A DNA stretch of 64,000 nt from a virus (IMGVR_UViG_3300050503_000029), one strand, 5' to 3'. Counted from the first letter of the stretch, positions 4,032 to 64,000 are shown. Numbers and translations: made by a program. Notes: generated by a model from the sequence alone, not told the origin.

Positions 4032-4222
4032 GTTTGCGGGTTGAGCTGCCGGCGTTCTGTTGCCGTTCGTTGCGTTCCGTTGCCAACTCTCCACAAATGT
4101 CTGAGTTTGTTGCCAACTCTGGTGATTCAGGGTTAGCCTCGCTGCGGTGTTCTGTTGCCGTCTGTTGCCAATTCTGGCGATTTGGTCGTTCCGTTGCCAA
4201 CTCTGGTAGTTTGCGGATTGAG
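4032..4222 (+). repeat. iteron block: GTTGCCAA(C/T)TCTGG x4 plus about 10-bp phased (C)TGTTGCC units, bracketed by GTTTGCGG(G/A)TTGAG
   Basis: GTTGCCAACTCT at 4079, 4109 and 4193, and GTTGCCAATTCTGG at 4164. TTCTGTTGCC/GTTCGTTGCG/TTCCGTTGCC run in tandem at 4055-4084, and CTGTTGCC occurs twice at 4152-4169. Bracket repeats lie at 4032..4045 and 4209..4222. Confidence 0.8.
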
Positions 4223-4256
4223 TGAGTCGGGCGTTAGGCGGGGAGAGCCAGAATAC

Positions 4257-4360
4257 TATTCCGATCTTGTTCCGAGCGACTATTCCGATCTTGTACCGCT
4301 GAAAGAATCGCAGCTCAGGACGTTAATGGAGAGGGACTATTCCGAGTATTCCGATCTTGT
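4257..4360 (+). repeat. second iteron family: TATTCCGATCTTGT x3 plus half-sites
   Basis: Full copies at 4257..4270, 4281..4294 and 4347..4360. Half-sites TATTCCGAG at 4338 and GTTCCGAG at 4269. The 13-mer GATCTTGTTCCGA (4263..4275) recurs on the reverse strand at 51.31 kb. Confidence 0.8.
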
Positions 4361-4631
4361 TCTCGTAGCTCATGCGCGTACGCGTAGGCGCGCTCTCTCG
4401 TGCATACACCTCAGCGAAGCTGAGGGTATTGCACGGAGAGATGCGCTGGCTACTACGCATGGCGGGGTCAAACCGCAGAGAGGGCGCTAGAGTATGACTA
4501 CGGAGAGTCACAGGATCTGAGGCTGTACACAACGGACCATGCTGTTAGGGTCCCCGATCGTGGGGAAACCGAAAGCGCGTCGCTCTCTGGGTGGGGTTTG
4601 CATGTGTGTACGAGGGAAGGGAGCCGGACAT

Positions 4632-17945: not shown

Positions 17946-18862
17946 CGACACTCACCGGCCCGCAGATCTACCCGGGCGCCGTGGCGTCTGGCTCATCGTG
18001 GTACGAGGACAACTGGGGCGGCGACCCGATGGAGGTCAACGTCGTCGTCCTCCACACCACCGAAGGCACGACGCTCCCGACGTACGACGGCGGCGCGGTC
18101 GCGCCCAACATCACGTTCGTCCCGGACTTCCGGAACAAGCGGCTCAAGGCGTACCAGCACTACCGCACGGACATCTCCTCGCGTGCCCTGGTGAACAAGC
18201 TGGGCGGCGTGGCGACGAACACCAACAACGTCACCCAGGCGGAGTTCGTCGGGACGTGCGACCCGGCAACGTCTCGCCGCTGGACAGCGGCTGGTGTGGA
18301 GCACATCTTCTGGCCGGACGCCCCCGACTGGGCGCTCCGCGAGATGGCCGAGTACCTGGCCTGGCTGTACGAGGAGCACGGCATCCCGCTCGTGGCGCCG
18401 GCGAAGTGGCCGGCCTACCCGACGTCCTACGCCAACGGCGGCGGGCAGCGGATGACCGAGGCGCAGTGGAACGCGTTCCACGGAGTGTGCGGTCACATGC
18501 ACCCGCCGGAGAACGTGCACGGCGACCCCGGCTCGCTCAACATCCAGAAGGTGCTGGCGTACGCGAAGGACCTGGCTGGCGACGGTGACGCGGACATCCC
18601 CGTGCCGACGCCGCCCAAGACCATCCCCGCGTTCCCGGGACGGAAGTACTTCCGTGCCGGCGCCAACAACAAGTACGTGACCCAGCTCGGCCAGCGCCTC
18701 GTGAAGAAGGGGTTCGGCCGGCACTACGTCGAGGGACCCGGGCCGAAGTGGGGAGAGGCCGACCGGCTGAACGTGCGGGACTTCCAGCGCTCGAAGGCTG
18801 CCCTCAAGGGTGACGCCGACGGGTACCCGGGTCCCCTGACCTGGAAGTTGCTGTTCTCGTAG
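17942..18862 (+). CDS. endolysin: N-acetylmuramoyl-L-alanine amidase with C-terminal peptidoglycan-binding domain
   Basis: GTG 17942 (GTGA overlap). Amidase-type VVVLHTTEGTTLPTY. C-terminal PG-binding repeat YVTQLGQRLVKKGFG ... DGYPGPLTWKLLF. Confidence 0.85.
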   Translation: MTTLTGPQIYPGAVASGSSWYEDNWGGDPMEVNVVVLHTTEGTTLPTYDGGAVAPNITFVPDFRNKRLKAYQHYRTDISSRALVNKLGGVATNTNNVTQAEFVGTCDPATSRRWTAAGVEHIFWPDAPDWALREMAEYLAWLYEEHGIPLVAPAKWPAYPTSYANGGGQRMTEAQWNAFHGVCGHMHPPENVHGDPGSLNIQKVLAYAKDLAGDGDADIPVPTPPKTIPAFPGRKYFRAGANNKYVTQLGQRLVKKGFGRHYVEGPGPKWGEADRLNVRDFQRSKAALKGDADGYPGPLTWKLLFS

Positions 18863-50778: not shown

Positions 50779-51140
50779 CAGATACCGTCCTCACTCGTCG
50801 GCTTGTACGACTCGTGGCCCCAGCCCTGCGGTGACTTGAAGATCCCGGGGGCCTTGTCACCCAGCAGATTGACGCCGAGGGCGAGGAACAGACGGCGGCC
50901 GTAGTTGCGTCGCCACCAGACGCCGGCGCGACCGCACATGCCGTGACGCTGCCAGCCCCAGTAGGAGTGCTGTTCGCCCCACCCGAACGACCGGGTACGC
51001 GCGGTCTTCTGAGACCGGCACTCACACTCCTTGCCCTTGGGGTCCTCGTACACACCCACCACTCGCTGGGGTGTCGTGTCGATGAACTCCTGGGCCTTCT
51101 CCTCGTCTCCGAAATACAGGAGGACGATCCGTCCGGCCAT
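50778..51140 (-). CDS. hypothetical Trp/Arg-rich protein (first gene of the leftward block)
   Basis: ATG 51140 (MAGRIVLLYFGDEEKAQEF...) inside track ORF 50778..51212. 120 aa. Confidence 0.55.
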   Translation of the reverse strand: MAGRIVLLYFGDEEKAQEFIDTTPQRVVGVYEDPKGKECECRSQKTARTRSFGWGEQHSYWGWQRHGMCGRAGVWWRRNYGRRLFLALGVNLLGDKAPGIFKSPQGWGHESYKPTSEDGI

Positions 51141-51665: not shown

Positions 51666-51694
51666 TTGACACATCGGCCGAGAGGAGCTAATGT
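51666..51694 (+). promoter_or_regulatory. promoter TTGACA-N17-TAATGT
   Basis: -35 at 51666..51671, -10 at 51689..51694. The downstream TGTCTCCATCGCAGCAACACG resembles the cassette leaders. Confidence 0.6.
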
Positions 51695-51789
51695 TGTCTC
51701 CATCGCAGCAACACGAGGTCACAACGACTCGTGAGAAGCGCCCACCAACTTGCATTAACCAACACACACCCGTGAGAGGGGCCACAGAG

Positions 51790-52518
51790 ATGGCAACGCG
51801 AGGACGCACCCAGGAAGTCGCCGACGAGGTCGAGGAGTTCGAGGAGTTCGAGGAGTTCGAGGACGTCGAGGCCGAGGACGAGGACATCGAGGGCACCGGC
51901 GACGAGCTGGACGACCTGGAGCTGGAGGAGGTCGAGGACGAGGACGAGGAGGAGCCCGTCGAGGAGGCCGCCCCCCAGAAGAAGGGCCGCAAGCCCGCCG
52001 CGAAGAAGGCGCCGGCCGAGAAGAAGAAGCCGGCCAACGCGGTCGAGTTCGGCACCGCCGAGCTCCTGGCCCTCATCGAGAAGGAGCACGGCAAGGCGTA
52101 CGACGGCCGCCAGCTCCGCGTCCTGCTCCGCAAGATGAAGGCCGCCGGCGAGCTGCCGGGCGAGGCCGCGGACGGCAAGCGCTACTCCTTCACCGGCGCC
52201 GACGACCCGCAGGTCCAGGCGATCATCCAGCGCGTCAAGTCCGGCGAGATCGACGAGGCCACGCAGGCCGCCCTCCAGAAGCTCAAGGAGGACGCCGAGA
52301 AGAAGCGGGCCGCGAAGAAGGCGGAGCGCGAGGCGGCCGAGGCCAAGGCCGCGGAGACCGAGGAGGTCACCGAGGACGAGGTCGAGGAGGAGGCCCCGGC
52401 CCCCAAGAAGCCGGCCGCGCGGCGTGCCCCCGCCAAGAAGGCGACCACGACCCGTCGGGCGCCGGCGCGCAAGAAGGCCACCGACGTGGCCGAGGACGAC
52501 GGCGACGACGAGGAGTGA
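51790..52518 (+). CDS. acidic/basic nucleoid-associated-like protein
   Basis: ATG 51790. 242 aa. Acidic N- and C-terminal tracts (EEFEEFEEFEDVEAEDED..., DDGDDEE). Histone-H1/HupB-like tails (KKGRKPAAKKAPAEKKKPA, PAPKKPAARRAPAKKATTTRRAPARKKA). Central module shared with the next two genes. Confidence 0.7.
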   Translation: MATRGRTQEVADEVEEFEEFEEFEDVEAEDEDIEGTGDELDDLELEEVEDEDEEEPVEEAAPQKKGRKPAAKKAPAEKKKPANAVEFGTAELLALIEKEHGKAYDGRQLRVLLRKMKAAGELPGEAADGKRYSFTGADDPQVQAIIQRVKSGEIDEATQAALQKLKEDAEKKRAAKKAEREAAEAKAAETEEVTEDEVEEEAPAPKKPAARRAPAKKATTTRRAPARKKATDVAEDDGDDEE

Positions 52519-52610: not shown

Positions 52611-52640
52611 TTGACACATGCGGGACCACGGTACTAGACT
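52611..52640 (+). promoter_or_regulatory. promoter TTGACA-N18-TAGACT
   Basis: -35 at 52611..52616, -10 at 52635..52640. The ATG at 52648 follows almost immediately, so the mRNA would be near-leaderless. Confidence 0.5.
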
Positions 52641-52647
52641 CGGAGAC

Positions 52648-53415
52648 ATGAGACGAGATGAAGCCGCGGCGATGATGACCAACCTCCTGGTTGAGAATGG
52701 TCTGTACCAGAAGGGATGGCGGTTCAATTGGATGAACCGTCGTAACACCTACGGTCTTTGCCGCTACGGCCCCAAGCTGGTCCAGCTCTCCGTGATGTTC
52801 GTGGACCACAACGACGAGGACAAGGTCCTCGAAGTGTGCCGGCACGAGGTCGCGCACGCTCTCACCCCCGGCGCCAAGCACGGCTGGGAGTGGCAGATGA
52901 TCGCTCGCCAGTTGGGTGTGGATGACCCGCGTCCCTGCACCACTGCCGCGGAGCTCCCGCCCGCTCGCTACCAGGCGACGTGCCCGTCCTGCACCAAGCT
53001 GTACTCCAAGGCCCGTCCGCCTAAGGTCGGCAATGGCCGCTTCTACTACTGCCCGCCCTGCTGGCGCTCTCGGGGGCACCTGCCGATGGACGAGCGCAAG
53101 GCTGCCGCGGAGCTCACGTACACTGACTCTCTCGCGTCGCACGTCGTGAGTGTCCCGAGAAAGCACGAGAGGGAGCCTGTGAGCGCCGCACAGAGTGCGC
53201 CTAGTGTCTCTCTTCAGTCGTCGTCTGCTGACGTCCCTAACAGCTTCTCAGCGCCCCAGCTTGCAGCCGCCATGAAGATCGACCCGAAGAAGTTCCGCGC
53301 GTGGCTGAGGCGCTGGAGCCTCGCGTCGAACTACCAGGTTGGGCCGGGCGGAGCGTACGCCTTCACCCCCGACCAGGTCGCGGATGTCGTTCGAGCGTGG
53401 AACGCCACCCACTGA
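52648..53415 (+). CDS. SprT-like zinc metalloprotease with zinc ribbon and C-terminal DNA-binding-like module
   Basis: HExxH in VCRHEVAHALTPGAKHGWEW. CPSC...CPPC ribbon. C-terminal FSAPQLAAAMKIDPKKFRAWLRR ... YAFTPDQVADVVRAW. Confidence 0.75.
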   Translation: MRRDEAAAMMTNLLVENGLYQKGWRFNWMNRRNTYGLCRYGPKLVQLSVMFVDHNDEDKVLEVCRHEVAHALTPGAKHGWEWQMIARQLGVDDPRPCTTAAELPPARYQATCPSCTKLYSKARPPKVGNGRFYYCPPCWRSRGHLPMDERKAAAELTYTDSLASHVVSVPRKHEREPVSAAQSAPSVSLQSSSADVPNSFSAPQLAAAMKIDPKKFRAWLRRWSLASNYQVGPGGAYAFTPDQVADVVRAWNATH

Positions 53416-53480: not shown

Positions 53481-53693
53481 ATGGCAAAGAGCGGTGCACA
53501 GGTCGCCCGAGATGCCGGCCTGGATCCGAAGGAGTTCCGTCGCTATCTGCGGTCGGTCCCGTCGTGGAACAACCCGGGGACTGGCAAGCGGTACATGTTC
53601 AGCGACCGGGACGAGGCGGCCGCACTCAAGGGGTACAAGGCGTGGAAAGCGGCACGCCAACCCGTCACCCGCACTAAGAAAGTCGAGGGTTGA
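53481..53693 (+). CDS. small protein carrying the shared DPK-FR-LR module
   Basis: 70 aa. SGAQVARDAGLDPKEFRRYLRS ... GKRYMFSDRDEAAALKGYKAW parallels segments in 51790..52518 and 52648..53415. Confidence 0.6.
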   Translation: MAKSGAQVARDAGLDPKEFRRYLRSVPSWNNPGTGKRYMFSDRDEAAALKGYKAWKAARQPVTRTKKVEG

Positions 53694-53798: not shown

Positions 53799-53872
53799 GC
53801 CCTCATGGTCTAGAGGCTTAGGACGCTGCCCTCTCAAGGCAGAGGCCGCCGGTTCGAATCCGGCTGGGGGTA
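53799..53872 (+). tRNA. tRNA-Glu (anticodon CTC)
   Basis: Manual fold: acceptor GCCCTCA/TGGGGGT. D arm GTCTAGAGGCTTAGGAC. Anticodon stem CTGCC/GGCAG with loop CTCTCAA. T arm GCCGG-TTCGAAT-CCGGC. Discriminator A, no encoded CCA. Confidence 0.8.
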
Positions 53873-53993: not shown

Positions 53994-54066
53994 GGCGGCA
54001 TACCTCAGTTGGTAGAGGAGTTCCCTTATAAGGTTCCAGTCGCGGGTTCGAGCCCCGCTGCCGCTA
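53994..54066 (+). tRNA. tRNA-like gene, anticodon TAT (Ile2-type), aberrant anticodon stem
   Basis: Acceptor GGCGGCA/TGCCGCT. D arm CCTC-AGTTGGTA-GAGG. T arm GCGGG-TTCGAGC-CCCGC. Loop CTTATAA. The anticodon stem GTTCC/GGTTC has two T:T mismatches. Confidence 0.55.
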
Positions 54067-54736: not shown

Positions 54737-54811
54737 TACCGCACGAGGGTGGGCCTCAGCCAAGGTGCTGGGGCTGTTATCTCTGGCAGGTCCCTAAAGC
54801 CTGCCCGCAAG

Positions 54812-54884
54812 CGCCCGTAGCTCAGTTGGCAGAGCAGGGGATTCTTAATCCTCGTGTCACTGGTTCAAGTCCAGTCGGGCGTAC
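54812..54884 (+). tRNA. tRNA-Lys (anticodon CTT)
   Basis: Acceptor GCGCCCG/CGGGCGT. D arm GCTC-AGTTGGCA-GAGC. Anticodon stem GGGGA/TCCTC with loop TTCTTAA. T arm ACTGG-TTCAAGT-CCAGT. Discriminator A. Confidence 0.85.
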
Positions 54885-56483: not shown

Positions 56484-57025
56484 TGCACCTTGAGGCAAGA
56501 GCCGGTCTGGACCGGATGATCGACCACGTCGGCATCGACCGACAGTACCCGTACCGCTGCCTGGACCTGGGCGGGCGGGACATCAACGGTGGCATCCGCG
56601 ACCTCATCCCGAACGGGAAGTGGCAGGGAGTGGACATCGAGGCCGGCCCGGGAGTGGACCTCGTCCGCGACTGCACCATGGGTTGGCTGGACACCCTGCC
56701 GCGGTTCGACATCGTGGTGTGCACGGAGGTCCTGGAGCACGTGGAGAAGTGGCGGGACATCCTCCGCACCTGTGCCCAGGCCCTCGACACGATGGGCAGC
56801 CAGCTCCTGTTCGTGACCGCGGCGTCCACGGGACGACGTGCGCACGGAGCGAGTGGGGCAATGGACCCGGCCCCCGGCGAGTGGTACCGCAACGTGCCGG
56901 CAGAGGACGTGGCCGAGGAGCTGGGCCACCTGTTCAACAACTCCGGCGCGGAGTACAACCCGGTGCCTGGGGACGTGTACGCGTGGGCGACGCTGCCGCG
57001 ATGGGGAGTGGTCAACGGTGAGTAA
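56483..57025 (+). CDS. class I SAM-dependent methyltransferase
   Basis: ATG 56483 overlaps the TAA (TAATG). Motif I RCLDLGGRD, motif II-III IVVCTEVLEHVEKW. Confidence 0.75.
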   Translation: MHLEARAGLDRMIDHVGIDRQYPYRCLDLGGRDINGGIRDLIPNGKWQGVDIEAGPGVDLVRDCTMGWLDTLPRFDIVVCTEVLEHVEKWRDILRTCAQALDTMGSQLLFVTAASTGRRAHGASGAMDPAPGEWYRNVPAEDVAEELGHLFNNSGAEYNPVPGDVYAWATLPRWGVVNGE

Positions 57026-57617
57026 GCCGGAGATCACGGTGGTGGTCCCGTTCCACACCCACCGTGAAGTGAACGGCTACCTCCAGCGTGCGGTTGCCTC
57101 GATCCAGCGTCAGACCATGCCTGACGTCCAGGTGATCGCCATCCGCGACGAGGAGCGGCAGGGGGCGCCGGCCACGCGTCATGCCGGGCTCATGCTCGTG
57201 GACACGCCCTGGGTCGCGTTCCTCGACTCCGACGACGAGATGGACCCGTGCCACCTGGAGCGGATCTACGCGTGCGCCCAGGAGACGGGAGCGGACTACG
57301 TCTACCCGTGGTTCCGTGTGCAGGGCGGGAGCGACCCGTTCCCTCAGTTCTTCGGCCAGCCGTGGGACAACGCCCAGCCGCACCAGACCACAGTGGTGAC
57401 GCTCGTCCGTACTGAGCTGGCCCAGGCCGTCGGCTTCCACGACCCCTCGGGCAAGGGCAACTGGCCGGACGGCCAGCAGTACGGGGAGGACTGGCTGTTC
57501 ACCCTGGGGTGCATGGACAAGGGCGCGAAGATCGTCCACCACCCCGAGCGCACCTGGACGTGGCATCACCACGGGGCCAACTCCTCTGGCATGCCGGGTC
57601 GCGGGGACGCTCGCTAG
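57018..57617 (+). CDS. glycosyltransferase family 2
   Basis: GTG 57018. ITVVVPFHTH N-terminus, DxD in VAFLDSDDEMD. 199 aa. Confidence 0.8.
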   Translation: MSKPEITVVVPFHTHREVNGYLQRAVASIQRQTMPDVQVIAIRDEERQGAPATRHAGLMLVDTPWVAFLDSDDEMDPCHLERIYACAQETGADYVYPWFRVQGGSDPFPQFFGQPWDNAQPHQTTVVTLVRTELAQAVGFHDPSGKGNWPDGQQYGEDWLFTLGCMDKGAKIVHHPERTWTWHHHGANSSGMPGRGDAR

Positions 57618-57623
57618 TCCGCC

Positions 57624-57652
57624 TTGACACGGGGGAGCGCGGGGGATACTGT
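57624..57652 (+). promoter_or_regulatory. cassette promoter TTGACA-N17-TACTGT
   Basis: CGCCTTGACA context, -10 followed by TGTCCTTGTCAGCAAGAC. Confidence 0.55.
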
Positions 57653-57692
57653 TGTCCTTGTCAGCAAGACCGACGAGAGAAGGGCACACAGC

Positions 57693-58016
57693 ATGACCCG
57701 CGCGAACCCGAGTAATACGGACATCGCCCAGCAGTGGGCGGATCGCTACGTCGCCCAGCACGACTACCTCACTCGTGTGTACGCGGCACTGACCAACGAG
57801 TCTGGGCACCAGCTCATGACCACGGACAAGTGCACGGAGTGTGACTACGCCGTGACGGCCGACTACTTCGAGAACAGCGCCCACTGGATCATGTGGGACC
57901 CCCAGAGCCAGACCCACATCGTGGTGATCGGCTGTGAAGGGTACTGGCTGATCAACCCCGCGTCAGTGGGTCTCGACCCTCAGATGTGGTCGGGTATCGA
58001 GGGCGTCAACATCTGA
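57693..58016 (+). CDS. cassette 1 protein (107 aa), hypothetical
   Basis: ATG 57693 after GAGAGAAGGG, inside track ORF 57624..58016. Contains CTEC. Confidence 0.6.
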   Translation: MTRANPSNTDIAQQWADRYVAQHDYLTRVYAALTNESGHQLMTTDKCTECDYAVTADYFENSAHWIMWDPQSQTHIVVIGCEGYWLINPASVGLDPQMWSGIEGVNI

Positions 58017-58032
58017 TCAAGCCCTGACAGAG

Positions 58033-58073
58033 AGAGCGGGAGTCGCGCGACATGAGCGCGTGACTCTCGCTCT
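58033..58073 (+). terminator. cassette terminator
   Basis: Preceded by CCTGACAGAGAG. Stem AGAGCGGGAGTC.../...GACTCTCGCTCT. Followed by TTCGCATG. Confidence 0.55.
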
Positions 58074-58195
58074 TTCGCATGTCTGAGACGTCCTGAGAGC
58101 GCGTCTCACGCTCCTAACGCACTAGCGCGAGTCTCTGTGTCGAGTGCAGCGCGAGAGCGCGTCAGACGCGCGCACAGAGACTTCCTCGCTACGTG

Positions 58196-58224
58196 TTGAC
58201 ATGAGAGCCGGGACCGGGTAGTGT
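58196..58224 (+). promoter_or_regulatory. cassette promoter TTGACA-N17-TAGTGT
   Basis: -10 followed by TCTTCTTGTGAGCAAG. Confidence 0.65.
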
Positions 58225-58290
58225 TCTTCTTGTGAGCAAGCGAGACCGGCTCACAGAGCAAGGATTGTTAACTCAACAGGGAGCGTCACG

Positions 58291-58581
58291 ATGGCTGAGA
58301 GCATCAACCGGCTTACGAACGACGAGGCGCGCGAGGCGTTCGAGAACATGATCAACGTTCTCGGCTGCGAGGGTGCGGCGAGCATCGCGGAGAACTTCAT
58401 CGAGCGTGAGGCGGAGAAGGTCGCCGCTGACATCAAGGATCCTCAGAAGAGGAGGGCCGCTGAGCTGGTCGTCTTCCGGATCATCCTTGACAAGCTGGAG
58501 GCAGCGTATGCGGAAGAGCTTCACGTGAACGAGACCGGCGAACAGCCCCGCTACGACGCGGGTCCCGGCAACGTCGGCTGA
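58291..58581 (+). CDS. cassette 2 protein (96 aa), acidic helical
   Basis: ATG after CAGGGAGCGTCACG. Its leader TAACTCAACAGGGAGC is identical to the one before gene 19628. Confidence 0.6.
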   Translation: MAESINRLTNDEAREAFENMINVLGCEGAASIAENFIEREAEKVAADIKDPQKRRAAELVVFRIILDKLEAAYAEELHVNETGEQPRYDAGPGNVG

Positions 58582-58588
58582 CGAACAG

Positions 58589-58625
58589 AGAGGCCCCCTG
58601 TGTGTGACGGCACAGGCGGGCCTCT
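58589..58625 (+). terminator. cassette terminator
   Basis: AGAGGCCCCCTGTG-N8-CACAGGCGGGCCTCT with one bulge. Confidence 0.6.
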
Positions 58626-58645
58626 CGCGCGTTGCTGCGGACAGC

Positions 58646-58661
58646 GGATACCCGGCATACC
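58646..58661 (+). repeat. 16-bp quasi-palindrome GGATACCCGGCATACC (copy 1)
   Basis: Lies between the cassette terminator and the next promoter. Confidence 0.85.
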
Positions 58662-58712
58662 GGTGGTGTGGGTCAGGCTCTGAGACCGGCTCACAACGCC
58701 GGCGCGTCCTCC

Positions 58713-58741
58713 TTGACTCACGAGCCGGGCCCGTGTAGTCT
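58713..58741 (+). promoter_or_regulatory. cassette promoter TTGACT-N17-TAGTCT
   Basis: CTCCTTGACT context. Confidence 0.55.
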
Positions 58742-58782
58742 TTAGATGTGAGCCCGACAAGCGGGCCCCGAAGGGAGCGACA

Positions 58783-59034
58783 GTGGACGCCACTCAGAAG
58801 AAGATCGCCGAGATCATGGGGACGATCAACCTGGAAGAGCTGGCCCAGCAGATGGTCGACAAGATCTCCGCCGAGATCTGCGACCACGCCGACCTCATCG
58901 CGCTTGCGCGCATGGAGGAGAAGAAGATCAAGGACGCTGACAGCCACGACGCGCACAAGATCTACGACGCCGCCGAGGCCATGATCATCGCCGCCGTGCT
59001 CCGCCACATGACCAACATCAACGCCAAGAAGTGA
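58783..59034 (+). CDS. cassette 3 protein (83 aa), helical
   Basis: GTG after GAAGGGAGCGACA. Track ORF. Confidence 0.6.
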   Translation: MDATQKKIAEIMGTINLEELAQQMVDKISAEICDHADLIALARMEEKKIKDADSHDAHKIYDAAEAMIIAAVLRHMTNINAKK

Positions 59035-59047
59035 TCGGCCGCAAGTA

Positions 59048-59083
59048 GAGGGGGCCCCTGCTCACCCGAGGGGGGGCCTCCTC
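59048..59083 (+). terminator. cassette terminator
   Basis: GAGGGGGCCCC-N14-GGGGCCTCCTC followed by GTTTGGGTTT. Confidence 0.6.
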
Positions 59084-59104
59084 GTTTGGGTTTCACGTCC
59101 CGCC

Positions 59105-59134
59105 TTGCGCTGAGCGCGGAGCACGTGGTACGAT
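59105..59134 (+). promoter_or_regulatory. cassette promoter TTGCGC-N18-TACGAT
   Basis: CGCCTTGCGC context, followed by GACTATGTCAGCAAGCG. Confidence 0.5.
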
Positions 59135-59167
59135 GACTATGTCAGCAAGCGAACGAAGGAGCCCGAA

Positions 59168-59500
59168 GTGTACGAGATCGAGAACCCGAAGCGCGTGGAG
59201 ATCATCATCGCCACCGCGAAGATCGTGGGATTCCCCGTCACTGAACTGTCCGCCCTCGTGCTCGATGCCCTCGACGCCGACCACGACACCACGCTGTTCC
59301 CGATCTACAACGTCCTCCCCGACGCCGAGAACGCCGACCCGCGCGCGTTCATGATCTTCTTCCTCCACAACATGATCGGATCCGACGACGACCACGACTA
59401 CATCAGCCACGACCTCGACCACGCCACTCAGTCTCTCGACCCGTGCCCCGCTCACGCGACCGAGTGCGCCACGTGCTGTGAGCCCTGCCTGAACGACTGA
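59168..59500 (+). CDS. cassette 4 protein (110 aa), acidic, C-terminal Cys cluster
   Basis: GTG after GAAGGAGCCCGAA. Ends ...CPAHATECATCCEPCLND. Confidence 0.6.
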   Translation: MYEIENPKRVEIIIATAKIVGFPVTELSALVLDALDADHDTTLFPIYNVLPDAENADPRAFMIFFLHNMIGSDDDHDYISHDLDHATQSLDPCPAHATECATCCEPCLND

Positions 59501-59515
59501 CGCACCACACCAGCC

Positions 59516-59552
59516 GAGAGCGCGTCTCCTCACCCGAGGGGGCGCGCCCTCT
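59516..59552 (+). terminator. cassette terminator
   Basis: AGAGCGCGTCTCC-N8-GGGGGCGCGCCCTCT with a 2-nt bulge. Confidence 0.55.
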
Positions 59553-59599
59553 GGTGAGCGAAGGCCTGAGAGCGGCTGTGACAGCCGGCGACGGTCAGC

Positions 59600-59615
59600 G
59601 GATACCCGGGTATCG
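59600..59615 (+). repeat. 16-bp quasi-palindrome GGATACCCGGGTATCG (copy 2)
   Basis: 15 of 16 positions palindromic. Confidence 0.85.
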
Positions 59616-59667
59616 AGCGGGCAGCTAGCGCGGCTCAGATCGCCGTAGGATTCATCGGCGTGCCGCC

Positions 59668-59696
59668 TTGCATAGCGAGGGGAGAGCGGATAGACT
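59668..59696 (+). promoter_or_regulatory. cassette promoter TTGCAT-N17-TAGACT (class B leader CTTAC-TAC-GTAAG)
   Basis: CGCCTTGCAT context. The inverted repeat CTTAC/GTAAG at 59695..59707 overlaps the start region. Confidence 0.55.
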
Positions 59697-59737
59697 TACT
59701 ACGTAAGCAAGACAAGCCCGAGCGAGAGGCAAGATCC

Positions 59738-60031
59738 ATGACTGACCGCGCACCCCTCGACCACGCGAAGATCGCCGTCCGCGCCGCTGACATCGCCGCG
59801 CACCACCTGACCGCGTTCAACCCCGGCGACTTCCTCGACGCCCTTGAGATGTTCGGCAACAGCCTGACCCGCTTCGTCTGGGCGGCGATCGATGACAGCC
59901 GCGACGACGAGAAGCTGGACGACTACTTCACCGAGCTGTCCAGTGAAGAGTTCGCCGAGCGTTACGACGCCGTCGCCGAGATCCTGCTCACGATCTTCAC
60001 CGCGTTCCTCGCGCGACTGCCCCGCCGCTGA
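59738..60031 (+). CDS. cassette 5 protein (97 aa), acidic helical
   Basis: ATG 59738 after GAGAGGCAAG, inside track ORF 59660..60031. Confidence 0.6.
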   Translation: MTDRAPLDHAKIAVRAADIAAHHLTAFNPGDFLDALEMFGNSLTRFVWAAIDDSRDDEKLDDYFTELSSEEFAERYDAVAEILLTIFTAFLARLPRR

Positions 60032-60041
60032 CACCCTGACA

Positions 60042-60075
60042 GAGAGCGCCTCCTCTTCCGAGAGGGGGCGCCCTC
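60042..60075 (+). terminator. cassette terminator
   Basis: Preceded by CCTGACAGAGAG. Stem GAGAGCGCCTCCTCT-TCCG-AGAGGGGGCGCCCTC. Followed by GCATGG. Confidence 0.6.
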
Positions 60076-60102
60076 GCATGGGGAGCGCGGGGAATTTTGG
60101 AT

Positions 60103-60114
60103 GGCAACGTTGTC
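60103..60114. repeat. GGCAACGTTGTC palindromic motif abutting the -35
   Basis: Part of the conserved block TTTTGGATGGCAACGTTGTCAGGCCTTGC (compare 63036..63066). Confidence 0.75.
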
Positions 60115-60119
60115 AGGCC

Positions 60120-60148
60120 TTGCGCGGCACGACGCGGGGTGGTAAGCT
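60120..60148 (+). promoter_or_regulatory. cassette promoter TTGCGC-N17-TAAGCT (class B)
   Basis: The -10 is embedded in GGTAAGCTTACCTTGTAAGC. Confidence 0.55.
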
Positions 60149-60183
60149 TACCTTGTAAGCGAGAGAGCAGAGAGAGGGAGATC

Positions 60184-60405
60184 ATGGAGAAGCCCAGCCA
60201 CTTCGAGCGCAAGAACCCCGACGTGATCGGCAAGTTCATCAGCCTGACCGCCGAGCTCCTGTCCGCCGACATGACCCAGGCTGACTACGACAAGCTCCGC
60301 GAGATCGCCGGCATCCTGAACCCGGGCGGGGGAGCGTTCGGCTTCGTCGCTCGCCTGAACGGCGACGTGGAGCGTCTGCACCCCCACATCCAGCGCCGCG
60401 ACTGA
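60184..60405 (+). CDS. cassette 6 protein (73 aa)
   Basis: ATG 60184 after AGAGGGAGATC, inside track ORF 60097..60405. Confidence 0.6.
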   Translation: MEKPSHFERKNPDVIGKFISLTAELLSADMTQADYDKLREIAGILNPGGGAFGFVARLNGDVERLHPHIQRRD

Positions 60406-60417
60406 CCGCCCCTGACA

Positions 60418-60451
60418 GAGAGCCCGTCCTCACCTGAGAGGGCGGGTTCTC
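60418..60451 (+). terminator. cassette terminator
   Basis: Preceded by CCTGACA. 14-bp stem GAGAGCCCGTCCTC/GAGAGGGCGGGTTCTC. Followed by GCATGG. Confidence 0.65.
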
Positions 60452-60499
60452 GCATGGGCGCGGCCCTGAGAGCGCGCGAGACGAGGTGTGTGGGGCACA

Positions 60500-60515
60500 G
60501 GATACCCGGCATACC
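60500..60515 (+). repeat. 16-bp quasi-palindrome GGATACCCGGCATACC (copy 3)
   Basis: Identical to copy 1. Confidence 0.85.
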
Positions 60516-60587
60516 AGGCTCCGTCGCCGGCTCGCACGCGGCCGCTGAGAGCCTCCTAAGTTACTTGTCGGTAAGGCCCGTCTCGCC

Positions 60588-60616
60588 TTGACGCGGCTCC
60601 GCGTGGTTGGTAAGCT
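60588..60616 (+). promoter_or_regulatory. cassette promoter TTGACG-N17-TAAGCT (class B)
   Basis: CGCCTTGACG context. The -10 is embedded in GGTAAGCTTACTCCGTAAGC. The upstream block CTAAGTTACTTGTCGGTAAGG is shared with 61972..61990. Confidence 0.6.
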
Positions 60617-60655
60617 TACTCCGTAAGCACGAAACGCCGAGCAAGGAGAGATCAC

Positions 60656-60865
60656 GTGGGTATCCTCGACCGCTTCCGCCGCACTGCCGACTCGGGCGAC
60701 GGGCCGGGCGTTCCCGAGCCCGACCTGGGCCGCCCCTACGCGACCGTCCGTTACAAGAACGAGACGGGTGGGTACACCGAGGTTCAGGCGTACAGCGCCG
60801 TCCAGGCTGACGAGATCAAGGCCGATCACCCCGACGCGAAGATCACGCCGAAGCGCGGGCGCTGA
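60656..60865 (+). CDS. cassette 7 protein (69 aa)
   Basis: GTG after CAAGGAGAGATCAC. Track ORF. Confidence 0.55.
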   Translation: MGILDRFRRTADSGDGPGVPEPDLGRPYATVRYKNETGGYTEVQAYSAVQADEIKADHPDAKITPKRGR

Positions 60866-60874
60866 TCGGGTAGC

Positions 60875-60908
60875 AGGGGGCGAGTCGAGAAGTCATCGGC
60901 TCGCCCCT
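60875..60908 (+). terminator. cassette terminator overlapping the next -35
   Basis: AGGGGGCGAG-N15-CTCGCCCCT. The last stem base is the first T of TTGCGC. Confidence 0.55.
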
Positions 60909-60937
60909 TGCGCATGACGTCAGGCCCGTGGTAAGCT
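60908..60937 (+). promoter_or_regulatory. cassette promoter TTGCGC-N18-TAAGCT (class B)
   Basis: The -10 is embedded in GGTAAGCTTACTCCGTAAGC. Confidence 0.55.
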
Positions 60938-60975
60938 TACTCCGTAAGCAAGAACGACGACGAGAGGAACCGACC

Positions 60976-61110
60976 ATGATGAACCACCGCCAGCGCGACC
61001 CCGAGGGTCTGTGGGTGTTGCTCGCCGGCATGACCTTCATCGTGTTCCTGACCACCGGCGTGATCCTCGGCCCCGACGGGATCGCCGCCCTGTGGAACAT
61101 GATCTTCTGA
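60976..61110 (+). CDS. cassette 8 protein (44 aa), single-TM mini-protein
   Basis: ATG 60976 after GAGAGGAACCGACC. MMNHRQRDPEGLWVLLAGMTFIVFLTTGVILGPDGIAALWNMIF. Confidence 0.45.
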   Translation: MMNHRQRDPEGLWVLLAGMTFIVFLTTGVILGPDGIAALWNMIF

Positions 61111-61123
61111 TCCGCCGCTGACA

Positions 61124-61159
61124 GAGTGCCCCTGCCCTCGAAAGAGGGTGGGGGCGCTC
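61124..61159 (+). terminator. cassette terminator
   Basis: Preceded by GCTGACA. 16-bp stem GAGTGCCCCTGCCCTC-GAAA-GAGGGTGGGGGCGCTC. Confidence 0.6.
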
Positions 61160-61209
61160 GTATGGAGCGAGGCCCTGAGTCGTCCTGTGAGCCGGCGACG
61201 AGCCGCAGA

Positions 61210-61225
61210 GGATACCCGGGTATCC
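61210..61225 (+). repeat. 16-bp perfect palindrome GGATACCCGGGTATCC (copy 4)
   Basis: Fully self-complementary. Confidence 0.9.
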
Positions 61226-61299
61226 ACCGGCGGGGCTGACGGGCGCAGAGAGCCGCACAGGACTTTCTAAAGAATCTTGGAAGTCCCCCTCGTTTCGCC

Positions 61300-61328
61300 T
61301 TGACGGAGCGAGCGCGGTGCCGTAGTGT
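61300..61328 (+). promoter_or_regulatory. cassette promoter TTGACG-N17-TAGTGT
   Basis: CGCCTTGACGG context, followed by TATCCATGTCAGCACGACA. Confidence 0.65.
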
Positions 61329-61380
61329 TATCCATGTCAGCACGACAGAGCAACACAAACCCTGAGAGCGAGTGATTCAA

Positions 61381-61755
61381 ATGTCCGCCAAGAACTTCTC
61401 CCACGCCGCTTGCGACCACGCCTCCACCAAGGTCGCTCGTGCGAAGTGCCGCCGTGAGATGGCCCGCTCCATCGCCGCCCTCGTGAGCGTCGCCACCGTC
61501 GTCACCGAGTCCCCGATCATCACCGCGTGGAACTCGATGAAGACCGGCCCGCTGGAGCTGCTCCCCGCCCCCGTTCGCACCGACGTGACCGCCGAGAACT
61601 GGAGGGAGTTCAAGGGTCAGACCGTCTCCGTCGACCTGATCGGCGAGACCATCGAGGGTGAGATCACCGGGTGGAGCGCGAAGAACGTGCAGATCAAGAC
61701 CGACGGCAAGACCGTCCGCCACCCCGTCAGCATCGTGATCCGCGCGACCGTCTGA
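61381..61755 (+). CDS. cassette 9 protein (124 aa) with N-terminal H-x2-C-x-H-x9-C module
   Basis: ATG 61381 after GAGAGCGAGTGATTCAA. MSAKNFSHAACDHASTKVARAKCRRE... Confidence 0.6.
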   Translation: MSAKNFSHAACDHASTKVARAKCRREMARSIAALVSVATVVTESPIITAWNSMKTGPLELLPAPVRTDVTAENWREFKGQTVSVDLIGETIEGEITGWSAKNVQIKTDGKTVRHPVSIVIRATV

Positions 61756-61768
61756 TCCGACGCTGATA

Positions 61769-61809
61769 GAGAGCCCCTGAGAGACGCTGAGAGCGTCCCA
61801 GGGGCTCTC
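61769..61809 (+). terminator. cassette terminator
   Basis: Preceded by GCTGATA. 11-bp perfect outer stem GAGAGCCCCTG/CAGGGGCTCTC plus an inner GACGC/GCGTC stem. Followed by GCATGG. Confidence 0.65.
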
Positions 61810-61915
61810 GCATGGACGCGCCGGCACTCTCGTACACGCGAGACGTGCGAGGCGCTTAGAGGCGCGCACAGGGCCTCGGCTCTGTACGGCGCTCAGACGG
61901 AGGGTGTGGGACGCC

Positions 61916-61931
61916 GGATACCCGGCATACC
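61916..61931 (+). repeat. 16-bp quasi-palindrome GGATACCCGGCATACC (copy 5)
   Basis: Identical to copies 1 and 3. Confidence 0.85.
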
Positions 61932-62004
61932 TCCCCGCCTCACGCCGGCTCAGATCGCCGCCTGTGGCTTTCTAAGTTACTCGTGGGTAACCCCTCGATC
62001 TGCC

Positions 62005-62033
62005 TTGACGGCCCCGGGCTGGGCGCGTAGTGT
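62005..62033 (+). promoter_or_regulatory. cassette promoter TTGACG-N17-TAGTGT
   Basis: TGCCTTGACGG context, followed by TATCCATGTCAGCACGACA. Confidence 0.65.
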
Positions 62034-62073
62034 TATCCATGTCAGCACGACAACGACGACGAGGGAGCAAGCC

Positions 62074-62340
62074 ATGACGAAGACCACGACCTACACCGTC
62101 CGGATGATCATGGGGAACGACAAGTGCACCACTCAGACCACCGTCGAGAGCGACACCACCGAGAACGCGGCGCGTGAGGCGGAGATGAAGTGGACGGGGA
62201 TCACGGTTCGGATCGTCACCGTCGAGGGGCCCGACGGGTGTGACGTTGAGCTGTGCGAGGACGACGACCACTGGTGCACGACGGACGAGCGCCACGGGCA
62301 CCTGGAGAGCGACGGGACGTGCATGAACTGCCACTACTGA
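62074..62340 (+). CDS. cassette 10 protein (88 aa), Cys/His-rich
   Basis: ATG 62074 after GAGGGAGCAAGCC, inside track ORF 61906..62340. Ends ...HWCTTDERHGHLESDGTCMNCHY. Confidence 0.6.
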   Translation: MTKTTTYTVRMIMGNDKCTTQTTVESDTTENAAREAEMKWTGITVRIVTVEGPDGCDVELCEDDDHWCTTDERHGHLESDGTCMNCHY

Positions 62341-62361
62341 GAGAGGGAGAGAGACGCCGTT

Positions 62362-62392
62362 AGAGGGCCCTGAGCGTAGCTCAGGGCCTCTC
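62362..62392 (+). terminator. cassette terminator
   Basis: GAGGGCCCTGAGC-GTA-GCTCAGGGCCTC followed by TCGCATGG. Confidence 0.6.
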
Positions 62393-62471
62393 GCATGGAC
62401 GACCGGGCACTGAGAGACGCGCGCCGGCTGAGAGGCGCTTAGACGGGCGCACAGGAAGTTTCGGTCTCGCC

Positions 62472-62500
62472 TTGACGGAGCCGGCGGGACCGTGTAGTGT
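62472..62500 (+). promoter_or_regulatory. cassette promoter TTGACG-N17-TAGTGT
   Basis: CGCCTTGACGG context, followed by TCTTCTTGTCAGAACG. Confidence 0.65.
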
Positions 62501-62540
62501 TCTTCTTGTCAGAACGAAACGCCGAGCAAGGAGCCCGACC

Positions 62541-62882
62541 ATGAGCGAGATCATCGTCCGCGAGATGACCGACGTGACCCCCACTTGCGCCCTCTGCGGG
62601 TTCGTCATCGAGGACATCGACCTCTCCGAGGAGACTGCCCGAGGCCTGATCCACTTCGACCGCCAGTGCCCGAAGGGCGCCGAGAAGAAGGCCAAGCCGG
62701 CTCGCAAGATCGCCGCCGCGCCGAAGAAGTCCCCGGAGCGCGTCCTCGCCGAGGGTGCGGGAATCGTCGTCAAGGAGATGAAGATCGTGGGTGTCCGTGG
62801 CGCTCACGCCGAGTGCGACCACGCCGCGACCAAGAGCGCGCGTGCCGCGTGCCGCAAGGCGAAGGCTGCCGCCGCGAAGTGA
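62541..62882 (+). CDS. cassette 11 protein (113 aa) with C-terminal H-x2-C-x-H-x9-C module
   Basis: ATG 62541 after CAAGGAGCCCGACC. N-terminal CALC...CPKG, a lysine-rich linker, then C-terminal GAHAECDHAATKSARAACRKAKAAAAK. Confidence 0.6.
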   Translation: MSEIIVREMTDVTPTCALCGFVIEDIDLSEETARGLIHFDRQCPKGAEKKAKPARKIAAAPKKSPERVLAEGAGIVVKEMKIVGVRGAHAECDHAATKSARAACRKAKAAAAK

Positions 62883-62890
62883 CCAAGATC

Positions 62891-62926
62891 GAGAGCCCCT
62901 GCTCCCAGACGGGAGTGGGGGCCCTC
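62891..62926 (+). terminator. cassette terminator
   Basis: GAGAGCCCCTGCTCCC-AGAC-GGGAGTGGGGGCCCTC. Confidence 0.6.
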
Positions 62927-62974
62927 AGGTGGGCGAGGCTCTGAGAGCCCGCCTAAGAGCCTGTCGTGGGCCCA

Positions 62975-62990
62975 GGATACCCGGCATTCC
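62975..62990 (+). repeat. 16-bp quasi-palindrome GGATACCCGGCATTCC (copy 6)
   Basis: One substitution relative to copy 1. Confidence 0.8.
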
Positions 62991-63046
62991 ACCGAGGCGC
63001 TGCCGGCGTCAGAACGCCGTACAGGCCTCCCCAAGATTTTTTGGAT

Positions 63047-63058
63047 GACAACGTTGCC
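63047..63058. repeat. GACAACGTTGCC palindromic motif abutting the -35
   Basis: Part of TTTTGGATGACAACGTTGCCAGGCCTTGC. Confidence 0.75.
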
Positions 63059-63063
63059 AGGCC

Positions 63064-63092
63064 TTGCATCTGCCGTGGCACCCGTGTAATGT
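63064..63092 (+). promoter_or_regulatory. cassette promoter TTGCAT-N17-TAATGT
   Basis: Followed by TCTTCTTGTCAGCAAGACAACG. Confidence 0.6.
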
Positions 63093-63136
63093 TCTTCTTG
63101 TCAGCAAGACAACGACCCAGAGAGCGAGTGATCCAA

Positions 63137-63445
63137 ATGGCCGCCAAGAAGTGCAACTCTTGCAAGACCCGCCGCGCCTCCTCCGAGAACATGGCCGACC
63201 TTTGCAACCTGTGCTACGAATACGGCGCCTGGGAGAACCAGCACGAGGACGACAACCACGAGGGCGGCGAGAACCTGACCCCTGACTGCCTCGTCTGCCA
63301 CGGCACCGACCCCGCCACCGTCGAGCCGAAGGGTCACTCCAACGGGATCGCCAAGACCCACACCAGCCACGCTGAGTGCAGCCACCCGCGCACGAAGGCC
63401 GCGCGTGCGAAGTGCCGCAAGGAGCGCGCCCAGTCGGGCGAGTGA
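63137..63445 (+). CDS. cassette 12 protein (102 aa) with C-terminal H-x2-C-x-H-x9-C module
   Basis: ATG 63137 after GAGAGCGAGTGATCCAA, the same leader as cassette 9. CNSC...CNLC...CLVC, then SHAECSHPRTKAARAKCRKERAQSGE. Confidence 0.6.
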   Translation: MAAKKCNSCKTRRASSENMADLCNLCYEYGAWENQHEDDNHEGGENLTPDCLVCHGTDPATVEPKGHSNGIAKTHTSHAECSHPRTKAARAKCRKERAQSGE

Positions 63446-63455
63446 ATCCCCAGTA

Positions 63456-63486
63456 GAGGAGCCCCCGCGTGAGCGGGGGTTTCCTC
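63456..63486 (+). terminator. cassette terminator
   Basis: GAGGAGCCCCCGC-GTGA-GCGGGGGTTTCCTC followed by GTTTGGG. Confidence 0.6.
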
Positions 63487-63497
63487 GTTTGGGACGT

Positions 63498-63509
63498 GGC
63501 AACGTTGCC
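63498..63509. repeat. GGCAACGTTGCC perfect 12-bp palindrome
   Basis: Directly after the terminator. Fully self-complementary. Confidence 0.75.
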
Positions 63510-63556
63510 ATTCCGCGAGGCTCTGAGCGGCCGTCTAAGCGCCTCTGTGGGACCTT

Positions 63557-63572
63557 GGTATGCCGGGTATCC
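63557..63572 (-). repeat. 16-bp quasi-palindrome, inverted orientation (GGTATGCCGGGTATCC; copy 7)
   Basis: Exact reverse complement of GGATACCCGGCATACC. Confidence 0.85.
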
Positions 63573-63731
63573 ACCCCGGACACTGAGGCCGTCAGAGAGC
63601 CGCGCCGGCTAGAGCGTGTCAAGTGCGCGCGACGAGAGAGACGAGGAACGCCCCAGACGGCGCTCAGGCGTGTCTCTGACGTCCTGTGACGTGTCGCCGG
63701 CACGAGAGACTAGAGGCGCGTGTCGAGGCGC

Positions 63732-63753
63732 CCTAGCGAGCGCACAGAGCTTC
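63732..63753 (-). repeat. copy 3 (reverse strand) of the GAAGCTCTGTGCGCTCG element
   Basis: The reverse strand reads GAAGCTCTGTGCGCTCGCTAGG. The first 17 nt are identical to 689..705. Confidence 0.75.
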
Positions 63754-63809
63754 TTTGTACCGCGGATTGTACTGACCTAAAAAATCTTGGTCGTGACGGC
63801 TATCTCGCC

Positions 63810-63838
63810 TTGACGGCCGACGACGACCCGGGTAATGT
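63810..63838 (+). promoter_or_regulatory. cassette promoter TTGACG-N17-TAATGT
   Basis: CGCCTTGACGG context, followed by TCTTCCTGTCAGCACAACG. Confidence 0.65.
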
Positions 63839-63880
63839 TCTTCCTGTCAGCACAACGCAGCAACCGAGGGAGACACCGAG

Positions 63881-64000
63881 ATGAGCAAGATCCAGAGCCA
63901 CGAGAACTGCACCCACGAGTCCTCGAAGGCCGCCCGCGCCAAGTGCCGCCGCTCCCGCGCCAAGTTCGCCGACGCGTTCGCCAGCGCCCTGACCGACGGC
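63881..64000 (+). CDS. cassette 13 protein, N-terminal part (runs off the window), with N-terminal H-x2-C-x-H-x9-C module
   Basis: ATG 63881 after GAGGGAGACACCGAG. MSKIQSHENCTHESSKAARAKCRRSRAKFADAFASALTDG... Confidence 0.55.
   Translation, partial: MSKIQSHENCTHESSKAARAKCRRSRAKFADAFASALTDG

Follow-up and report, generated by a model that had tools for sequence, protein, structure and literature searches.

A conserved 16-bp intergenic word in the small-gene array of KimJongPhill-like Streptomyces phages: a candidate site for a sequence-specific DNA-binding protein

The DNA considered here is a viral sequence of 64,000 nucleotides (IMGVR_UViG_3300050503_000029), referred to throughout as the window, which ends inside an array of small genes in whose spacers one 16-bp word, the 16-mer, recurs seven times. 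The question that this locus raises is what such a word is for, namely whether it is read as RNA or as duplex DNA, and in the latter case whether it would serve a regulator, a sigma factor, a recombinase, or an architectural protein. Our answer, which we hold with slightly better than even confidence and which is drawn from the sequences themselves, is that the 16-mer may well be recognised, as duplex DNA, by a sequence-specific protein that would modulate a subset of the array promoters together. The evidence that carries this answer is the conservation of the word among relatives of the phage, its independence of orientation, its placement between a terminator-like hairpin and the next promoter, and the quantised distance that separates it from that promoter.

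A recurrent word in a phage small-gene array

A pattern search of the window that allowed up to two mismatches returned nine strand-matches, corresponding to seven sites, against 0.15 expected, a number that was reached in none of 100 shuffles. The coordinates that a preliminary description of the window had given for the seven copies are all right (Table 1), as is its statement that the 64 kb hold no further copy: the nearest look-alikes, at 18821, 35421, and 54649, match one degenerate half only and lie inside coding DNA. The same description correctly recognised the copy at 61210 as a perfect palindrome, the copies at 58646, 60500, and 61916 as one identical asymmetric sequence, GGATACCCGGCATACC, and the copy at 63557 as GGATACCCGGCATACC inverted. 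Its consensus, with the 3′ part (C/G)(A/T)ATCC, has to be abandoned, as most copies are not described by it: after the 10-mer GGATACCCGG, which is the invariant part, the window copies continue with CATACC, CATTCC, GTATCC, or GTATCG, and they generalise to GGATACCCGG-S-W-W-W-C-S.

The best megablast match to window positions 57000–64000 is Streptomyces phage KimJongPhill (MW822144, 82,521 bp; 96.7% identity), and phage Zuko (MN204493) is 81% identical to the same segment; both belong to the genus Zukovirus and are placed in Actinobacteriophage cluster BR by a paper that refers to them (PMC10690885). According to a whole-window BLAST, the window corresponds to the reverse complement of a genome like that of KimJongPhill, circularly permuted: the ends of the deposited KimJongPhill record are joined at 51140/51141, so that, compared with the isolate record, the source sequence was either permuted or assembled into a circle. 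The site-bearing array consists of leftward small genes, namely KimJongPhill genes 86–106, every one of which is annotated as hypothetical, and it runs on past the end of the window. Among isolated phages, it was found only in KimJongPhill and Zuko; its cassette proteins are orphans in Pfam and PHROGs, and the genes are presumably early or host-takeover genes. Gene content varies among the relatives. At 60058–60064, the window lacks ~370 bp of KimJongPhill (record 73246–73618, overlapping gene 101), an indel that is cassette-level and lies in a spacer without a 16-mer.

The sites themselves are conserved across these relatives. KimJongPhill carries 11 of them (64674–75021) and Zuko 10 (64252–74512), all in array spacers and none elsewhere, coding DNA included, in the 82 kb of either genome. 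They are retained as well in genomes that are 68–80% identical to the window, with seven sites in IMGVR_UViG_3300037470_000126 (loci L005 and L011), and eight within 5.4 kb, nine, and three, respectively, in the metagenome contigs L246, L273, and L281. Exact-word scans of IMG/VR, metagenomes, and GTDB returned, among the matches listed, clusters of sites in phage relatives only and otherwise single chance hits, and there was no Streptomyces excess for the exact word in the genome collections among those same matches. In the searchable literature, no paper was found that gives the motif string as a regulatory site or that deals with repeats in these phages. In KimJongPhill, the −35 of the gene-98 promoter is immediately preceded by a degenerate partial copy, GGATACTCGG (record 72025; locus L001, ~32025); the orthologous spot in the window, ~61270–61290, is without it, and the partial copy is probably due to chance.

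Anatomy of the site and its independence of orientation

Across the window and its relatives, 48 non-redundant sites were catalogued. The strict half, GGATACCC, is present in each of them and exact in 41; a CCGG centre is found in all 48 too, but the catalogue search required it, so that this figure is not independent. On the opposite strand, the second half reads GGTATGCC in 23 sites and GGAATGCC in 11, with three more variants that end in ATGCC, and most second halves fit GG(T/A)ATGCC; in the 10 palindromic sites, it is another GGATACCC-like half, and two relaxed halves together occur in none of the 48. On one strand, the consensus reads GGATACC-CG-G-S-W-W-W-C-C (GGATACCCGG-S-W-W-W-C-C), that is, two 7-bp units with starts 9 bp apart, of which the second is kept only as a pattern of strong and weak base pairs and is displaced by one base in two sites (L246 1415 and L273 11543). 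The 16 positions hold ~23.8 bits over the 48 sites, and the flanks ~0.3 bit per position. The term quasi-palindrome, under which the element had been introduced, overstates its symmetry, with palindromic or nearly palindromic copies accounting for two of the seven in the window and 10 of the 48 in the wider set, and the suggestion that went with it, of a dimeric helix-turn-helix (HTH) protein on a 16-bp dyad, is weakened by the asymmetry of most sites.

Of the 48 sites, 25 have the orientation of the genes and 13 the reverse one, the other 10 being palindromic (binomial p = 0.07 for forward versus reverse). When orthologous spacers are aligned, the 16-mer stands out as a conserved island, and it flips between orthologues while its flanks keep their orientation, as in window 63557 versus L273 9393; a whole half can also be swapped, as in KimJongPhill 68465, with GGTATGCC, versus Zuko 68433, with GGATACCC. 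A protein that reads duplex DNA fits such flips and half swaps, which a transcript signal or a directional promoter would not tolerate.

An RNA-level element, whether a hairpin, a processing site, or a terminator part in the 3′ untranslated region of the upstream gene, is largely refuted by this and by what follows, and we find it scarcely credible. In its favour, a palindromic copy could fold into a stem of 6 bp closed by a CCGG loop, and the site often lies inside long helices in minimum-free-energy folds; on the other side, 36 of the 48 cores are not self-complementary, and cognate flanks pair no better than non-cognate ones (permutation p = 0.74–0.99 over five window sizes), which speaks of no compensatory evolution. 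Fold z-scores are near zero, the spacers have no Rfam match even at E ≤1 (the Rfam matches of the window are three transfer RNAs (tRNAs) only), and the site lies 3′ of strong terminator hairpins. Also rejected was a long hairpin or cruciform tipped by the 16-mer, the apparent pairing coming from shared boxes and GC content.

The same flips bear on a promoter for an alternative sigma factor. The −10 consensus of the SigB/SigF type is GGGTAT, which is contained in the invariant CCGGGTATCC and is present on one strand of every site; however, no conserved −35 of the GTTT type lies 14–17 nt upstream of GGGTAT, the flanks being unconserved, most sites would fire antisense into the upstream terminator, the direction of firing would change from one orthologue to another, and no phage sigma factor is annotated. 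We consider this explanation highly improbable.

The presence of both orientations in an array of cassette-like organisation, with a gene content that differs between relatives, could also point to a recombination site for cassette shuffling in the manner of integron attC, or to a selfish repeat of the repetitive extragenic palindromic (REP) or miniature inverted-repeat transposable element type, and the half swap between KimJongPhill and Zuko does look like conversion between copies. Such an origin is nevertheless very unlikely: copies stand at orthologous positions in the 68–80% identical genomes, which argues that they are inherited and not mobile; homology breakpoints between relatives are not at the 16-mer, and most alignments run through it; most copies cannot form a hairpin; and there is no annotated recombinase or transposase and no homologue of a phiC31-type integrase. 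A palindrome of the REP or bacterial interspersed mosaic element kind was rejected on the lack of self-complementarity in three-quarters of the sites, of cognate flank pairing, and of an annotated transposase.

Placement between terminator-like hairpins and promoters

Promoters in the array were located with a regular expression of our own and represent consensus matches only, and hairpins were folded with RNAfold; a simple promoter and terminator scanner proved too stringent, both for promoters of this form and for terminators that lack a T-run. Every copy in the window lies, as had been described, between a putative terminator and a promoter, 3′ of a strong GC-rich hairpin and 5′ of TTGAC-N18-TAnnnT. 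A motif-bearing spacer starts right after the stop with this hairpin, which has a stem of 12–16 bp, is usually without a T-run, and is followed by CTCGCATGG; the 16-mer comes 45–110 nt after the hairpin, and after it a promoter of the form cgCC-TTGAC-N18-TAGTGT and then a conserved leader, TGTCAGCA or CGTAAGCA. The array spacers at 58017–64000 share a modular order, which runs from the stop through CTGACAGAGAG, the GC hairpin, CTCGCATGG, a box of the CTGAGAGCC type, the 16-mer where there is one, a GCCGGCTCAGA box, CACAGG, and an optional AT-rich UP-like tract (TTTCTAAGTTAC or AAGATTTTTT) to the promoter (cgCCTTGAC-N18-TAGTGT) and one of the two leaders.

Measured from the site centre to the −35 (first base), the distance is quantised, being 59–60 bp in 15 cases, 69–71 bp in 6, and 80–82 bp in 17, with outliers at 46, 62, 84, 104, 120, 127, and >240 bp. 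At periods of 10.5–11.5 bp, the Rayleigh R of this distance is 0.74–0.82; the sites are related by descent, and nominal p-values for the spacing thus overstate their independence. Spacers of one length class can be unrelated in sequence outside the boxes, and an equal length despite unrelated sequence argues for a constraint on length. If transcription is assumed to start 7 nt after the −10, the site centres would fall near −95, −105, and −116, positions at which the site would always lie on the same helical face with respect to the promoter.

A site is found within 135 bp of about half of the array promoters, and site-less (n) and site-bearing (Y) promoters often take turns (n Y n Y n Y n Y Y n Y along the window array), which suggests that the long site-bearing spacers delimit one- or two-gene units. 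The alternation of these with short site-less spacers, and the position of every site 3′ of a terminator-like hairpin that mostly lacks a T-run, would suit a stoperator-like roadblock or insulator, in which a bound protein halts polymerase that reads through the U-tail-poor hairpins and so insulates the units from one another; the multi-copy intergenic placement also recalls the stoperators of phage L5. We judge a roadblock to be unlikely. It needs no helical register with the next promoter, whereas the spacing here is quantised; L5 stoperators depend on orientation and are spread genome-wide, whereas the 16-mer is free in orientation and confined to one array; and the phage has neither a homologue of the L5 repressor gp71 nor a lysogeny module.

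The helical phase of the spacing is compatible, too, with an architectural element, in which the 16-mer and the boxes around it would form a bendable or wrapped module of ~70 bp for a nucleoid-type protein, or a supercoil barrier, that boosts or buffers the strong promoters next to it without specific switching. The site is indeed flanked by weak mirror-image boxes (cc.TCTGAG.GCC - N13 - 16-mer - ~N13 - GGC.CTYAGA), of which the nearer left one ends 13 nt before the 16-mer and the mirror boxes, of the GCCGGCGTCAGA type, follow ~11–14 nt after it; A/T positions in the spacers show a periodicity of ~11.5 bp, and AT-rich UP-like tracts lie between the module and the −35 in the 80–82 class. The boxes are enriched in the array, yet they are present also in spacers without a 16-mer; the periodicity is weak and could stem from the shared layout of boxes; and a core of ~24 bits with a nearly invariant 10-mer is far more specific than the usual site of a nucleoid protein. 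On balance, we take an architectural element to be quite unlikely.

Table 1. Positions in the window of the 16-mer sites, the promoter-like sequences that follow them, an example of the flanking boxes, and a candidate binding protein
Feature	Position	Strand	Remark
16-mer site GGATACCCGGCATACC, strict half first	58646..58661	+	centre 59 bp upstream of −35
16-mer site GGATACCCGGGTATCG, near-palindrome	59600..59615	.	centre 60 bp upstream of −35
16-mer site GGATACCCGGCATACC	60500..60515	+	centre 80 bp upstream of −35
16-mer site GGATACCCGGGTATCC, perfect palindrome	61210..61225	.	centre 82 bp upstream of −35
16-mer site GGATACCCGGCATACC	61916..61931	+	centre 81 bp upstream of −35
16-mer site GGATACCCGGCATTCC	62975..62990	+	centre 81 bp upstream of −35
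16-mer site, inverted (GGTATGCCGGGTATCC on the + strand)	63557..63572	-	next promoter 245 bp downstream
Promoter-like TTGAC-N18-TAGTCT	58713..58741	+	after site 58646
Promoter-like TTGCA-N18-TAGACT	59668..59696	+	after site 59600
Promoter-like TTGAC-N18-TAAGCT	60588..60616	+	after site 60500
Promoter-like TTGAC-N18-TAGTGT	61300..61328	+	after site 61210
Promoter-like TTGAC-N18-TAGTGT	62005..62033	+	after site 61916
Promoter-like TTGCA-N18-TAATGT	63064..63092	+	after site 62975
Promoter-like TTGAC-N18-TAATGT	63810..63838	+	next promoter past site 63557
Example of left flanking boxes (CTGAGAGCC, CTAAGAGCC)	62941..62961	+	weakly conserved
Candidate binder: 70-residue stand-alone MerR-like winged-helix protein, homologue of KimJongPhill gp116	53481..53693	+	lead only

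Candidate binding proteins and relation to known systems

The reading that we prefer, a duplex site for a regulatory protein, would work as follows. A protein encoded by the phage or by the host would recognise the 16-mer, which marks about half of the promoters in a set of individually promoted and terminated small genes, with the strict unit GGATACC and the relaxed unit G-S-W-W-W-C-C accommodating two protomers, or one strong and one weak contact; the relaxed unit would be read partly by its strong/weak (GC versus AT) pattern and not by its exact bases. From its position on one face of the helix, the bound protein might modulate the downstream promoter at a distance, through DNA bending, looping, or contact with upstream-bound RNA polymerase, and a subset of the array promoters would be switched as a group while infection is under way. 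The existence of the sites, their conservation, their free orientation, their placement, and their quantised spacing are seen directly in the sequences; that a protein binds there, which protein it is, and whether it activates or represses are our inference.

Several regulators had been proposed for the site, and of these the protein encoded at 53481 retains weak DNA-binding support, while the proteins at 4632 and 4998 and those with an H-x2-C-x-H motif have none: searches of Pfam, PHROG, and PDB returned nothing DNA-binding for the cassette proteins or for the 4632 and 4998 candidates. Four cassette proteins (61381–61755, 62541–62882, 63137–63445, and 63881–64000) share the motif S-H-x2-C-x-H-x5-6-A-R-A-x-C-R-(K/R) in an N- or C-terminal position; three of these four H-x2-C-x-H...ARAKCRR proteins match PHROG 18656 or 1342, families of unknown function, and Pfam and PDB contain no relative of any of the four. 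The protein at 53481, with 70 residues, is listed in Table 1; its KimJongPhill homologue gp116 is annotated as MerR-like HTH, it matches a PHROG HTH family (E = 6e-5), and its AlphaFold2 model (predicted local distance difference test 80) finds its best PDB matches in the MerR-family domains of NmlR, BmrR, RacA, and BldC. The gene lies 5 kb from the site array, and its homologues are nearly limited to this phage group. One homologue, 69% identical, is found in an integrative element of Streptomyces hirsutus (locus L426; JBEYFU010000008.1, 71940–92173), where genes for a tyrosine integrase, a GntR-type regulator, and an AAA_25 protein are present too. In the window, the neighbouring SprT-like protease (52618–53415) has ~50 C-terminal residues that are homologous to the 70-residue protein (hmmsearch E = 1.2e-4), and an acidic, Lys/Ala/Pro-rich protein at 51691–52518 has a segment that looks similar by eye, the match not being significant.

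In its most specific form, the proposal would run that the gp116 homologue, as a relative of the BldC family, nucleates a module upstream of the promoter, consisting of two units with a 9-bp spacing, one read base by base and the other mainly by its strong/weak shape, in either orientation, ~9–11 helical turns upstream of the transcription start and in strict register, which switches every second promoter of a host-takeover array and partitions the array into one- or two-gene units. Taken as a whole, we think this specific form improbable.

A number of points weigh against a regulatory protein site, and some against this candidate in particular. The other half of the array promoters do without a site, and the quantised spacing could in part be inherited from duplicated spacer modules, the sites being paralogous or orthologous. 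The usual range of class-I-like activators is −61 to −93, and the positions from −95 to −116 that we derive are farther upstream than classical direct-contact activator sites. The early timing of the array and the sign of regulation are assumptions. Annotation searches of Pfam, PHROG, and PDB found no binder, and a host regulon with the 16-mer is still compatible with a host scan that covers only the matches listed. For the 70-residue protein, the fold matches are weak (Foldseek E 0.05–0.7, template-modelling score ~0.55), no 16-mer lies near its gene, and none occurs within 10 kb of the homologue in S. hirsutus.

Three other features of the window are recorded here. In the divergent region between the leftward and rightward gene blocks (4050–4365), there are iteron-like direct repeats, with five copies of CGTTCCGTTGCCAACTCT (4073, 4103, 4148, 4158, and 4187) and three of ACTATTCCGATCTTGT (4255, 4279, and 4345), which may be an origin or a cluster of operators. 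Another palindromic word, GGCAACGTTGCC, has a perfect copy at 63498–63509 and copies with one mismatch at 60103, 63047, 22406, and 46195, with 15 hits at up to two mismatches against 3.7 expected; the copies at 60103 and 63047 lie just upstream of a −35, its half-site GTTGCC is shared with the iterons at 4073–4204, and it is a candidate for a more classical operator than the 16-mer. The three tRNA genes (53799–53872, 53994–54066, and 54811–54883; Rfam) lie between the winged-helix gene and a block of glycosyltransferase and methyltransferase genes, and their counterparts in KimJongPhill are annotated as Glu(ctc), Ile(tat), and Lys(ctt).

What makes the 16-mer worth pursuing is that a single word in front of half of the promoters gives experiments a direct handle on the regulator that would time what is probably the host-takeover module of the uncharacterised phages of cluster BR (Zukovirus), an array of ~20 orphan small genes in which every gene has a strong promoter and a terminator of its own. 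The word may also provide a compact, orthogonal part for the control of promoters in Streptomyces engineering. A strict and a relaxed half without fixed orientation, together with a quantised spacing far upstream, are unusual for phage operators, and such a design would inform on action at a distance in actinobacterial transcription.

Among known systems, one for comparison is BldC, a 68-residue MerR-like domain that binds 9-bp head-to-tail units, each with an A/T tract and a C-G pair (PMC5859096). The 16-mer lends itself to a division into two units at a distance of 9 bp, in each of which an A/T triplet precedes C/G pairs, and its second unit keeps only the strong/weak pattern that would be expected for readout of the minor groove or of shape; the phage, moreover, encodes a MerR-like protein of 70 residues that is a winged helix only. 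The differences are that BldC binds its unit, AATTxxxxC, directionally and can extend over four or more of them, whereas there are two units here and no conserved extension, and that sequence similarity of the 70-residue protein to BldC is not shown, its fold match being weak. Two G-S-W-W-W-C-C units 9 bp apart are compatible with the AATTxxxxC logic while differing in the sequence of the unit, and at the strong/weak level they are equally a dyad. With class-I-like activator sites that must lie on one face of the helix, the 16-mer shares a spacing in integral helical turns, in a set of sites that are related by descent.

The type-2 operator of Streptomyces CsoR, ATATACCCCTNAGGGGTATAT, is defined by TAC-N9-GTA (PMC3902906), and palindromic copies of the 16-mer resemble it in that they look like ATACCC...GGGTAT, with a G/C tract within a TAC/GTA dyad; a CsoR-type operator was rejected, as the spacing here is TAC-N4-GTA and the second GTA arm is missing in most copies. 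The OB sites of KorB in plasmid RK2 and the C1 operators of phage P1 may be analogous, as cases of one regulator that serves many operators, some of them tens to hundreds of base pairs from their promoters, and neither the ParB-type KorB nor P1 C1 has a detectable counterpart in this phage.

The conserved inverted repeats (CIRs) of phiC31 are a multi-copy motif of ~16–17 bp in intergenic spaces of the early region of a Streptomyces phage, close to promoters and terminators, and the 16-mer is likewise multi-copy and intergenic, between terminator hairpin and promoter, with seven copies in the window and 10–11 per complete genome. The CIRs, however, have the form of inverted repeats, and their binding protein is the large repressor c of a temperate phage, whereas the 16-mer is palindromic in about one-fifth of its copies and unrelated in sequence; a homologue of repressor c was not found by tblastn in the window (best E 1.2), KimJongPhill (best E 2.0), or Zuko (best E 5.1), no integrase or immunity repressor is annotated in either isolate, and the phage appears to be lytic.

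The stoperators of L5, reportedly described by Brown et al. in 1997 as multi-copy and intergenic, resemble the 16-mer as many copies of a short conserved word in phage intergenic DNA, presumably with one regulator for many units. They are 13-bp asymmetric words found across a whole genome in transcribed DNA and oriented with transcription, their binding protein is gp71, the immunity repressor of a temperate phage (for which tblastn found no homologue in the window, KimJongPhill, or Zuko; best E 0.70), and one of them overlaps an early promoter. The 16-mer, by contrast, is confined to one array of ~10 kb, comes after terminators and mostly 46–130 bp upstream of promoters in either orientation, and never overlaps a promoter, the closest centre being 46 bp upstream of a −35. 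Of the two alternatives in the original proposal of an operator or stoperator, the operator-type protein site is the one that gains support, from a word that is under selection, orientation-free, and intergenic, and the stoperator analogy falls away. The 16-mer is neither a stoperator nor a phiC31 CIR, and its resemblance to both lies in the many copies of one word that it places in intergenic DNA.

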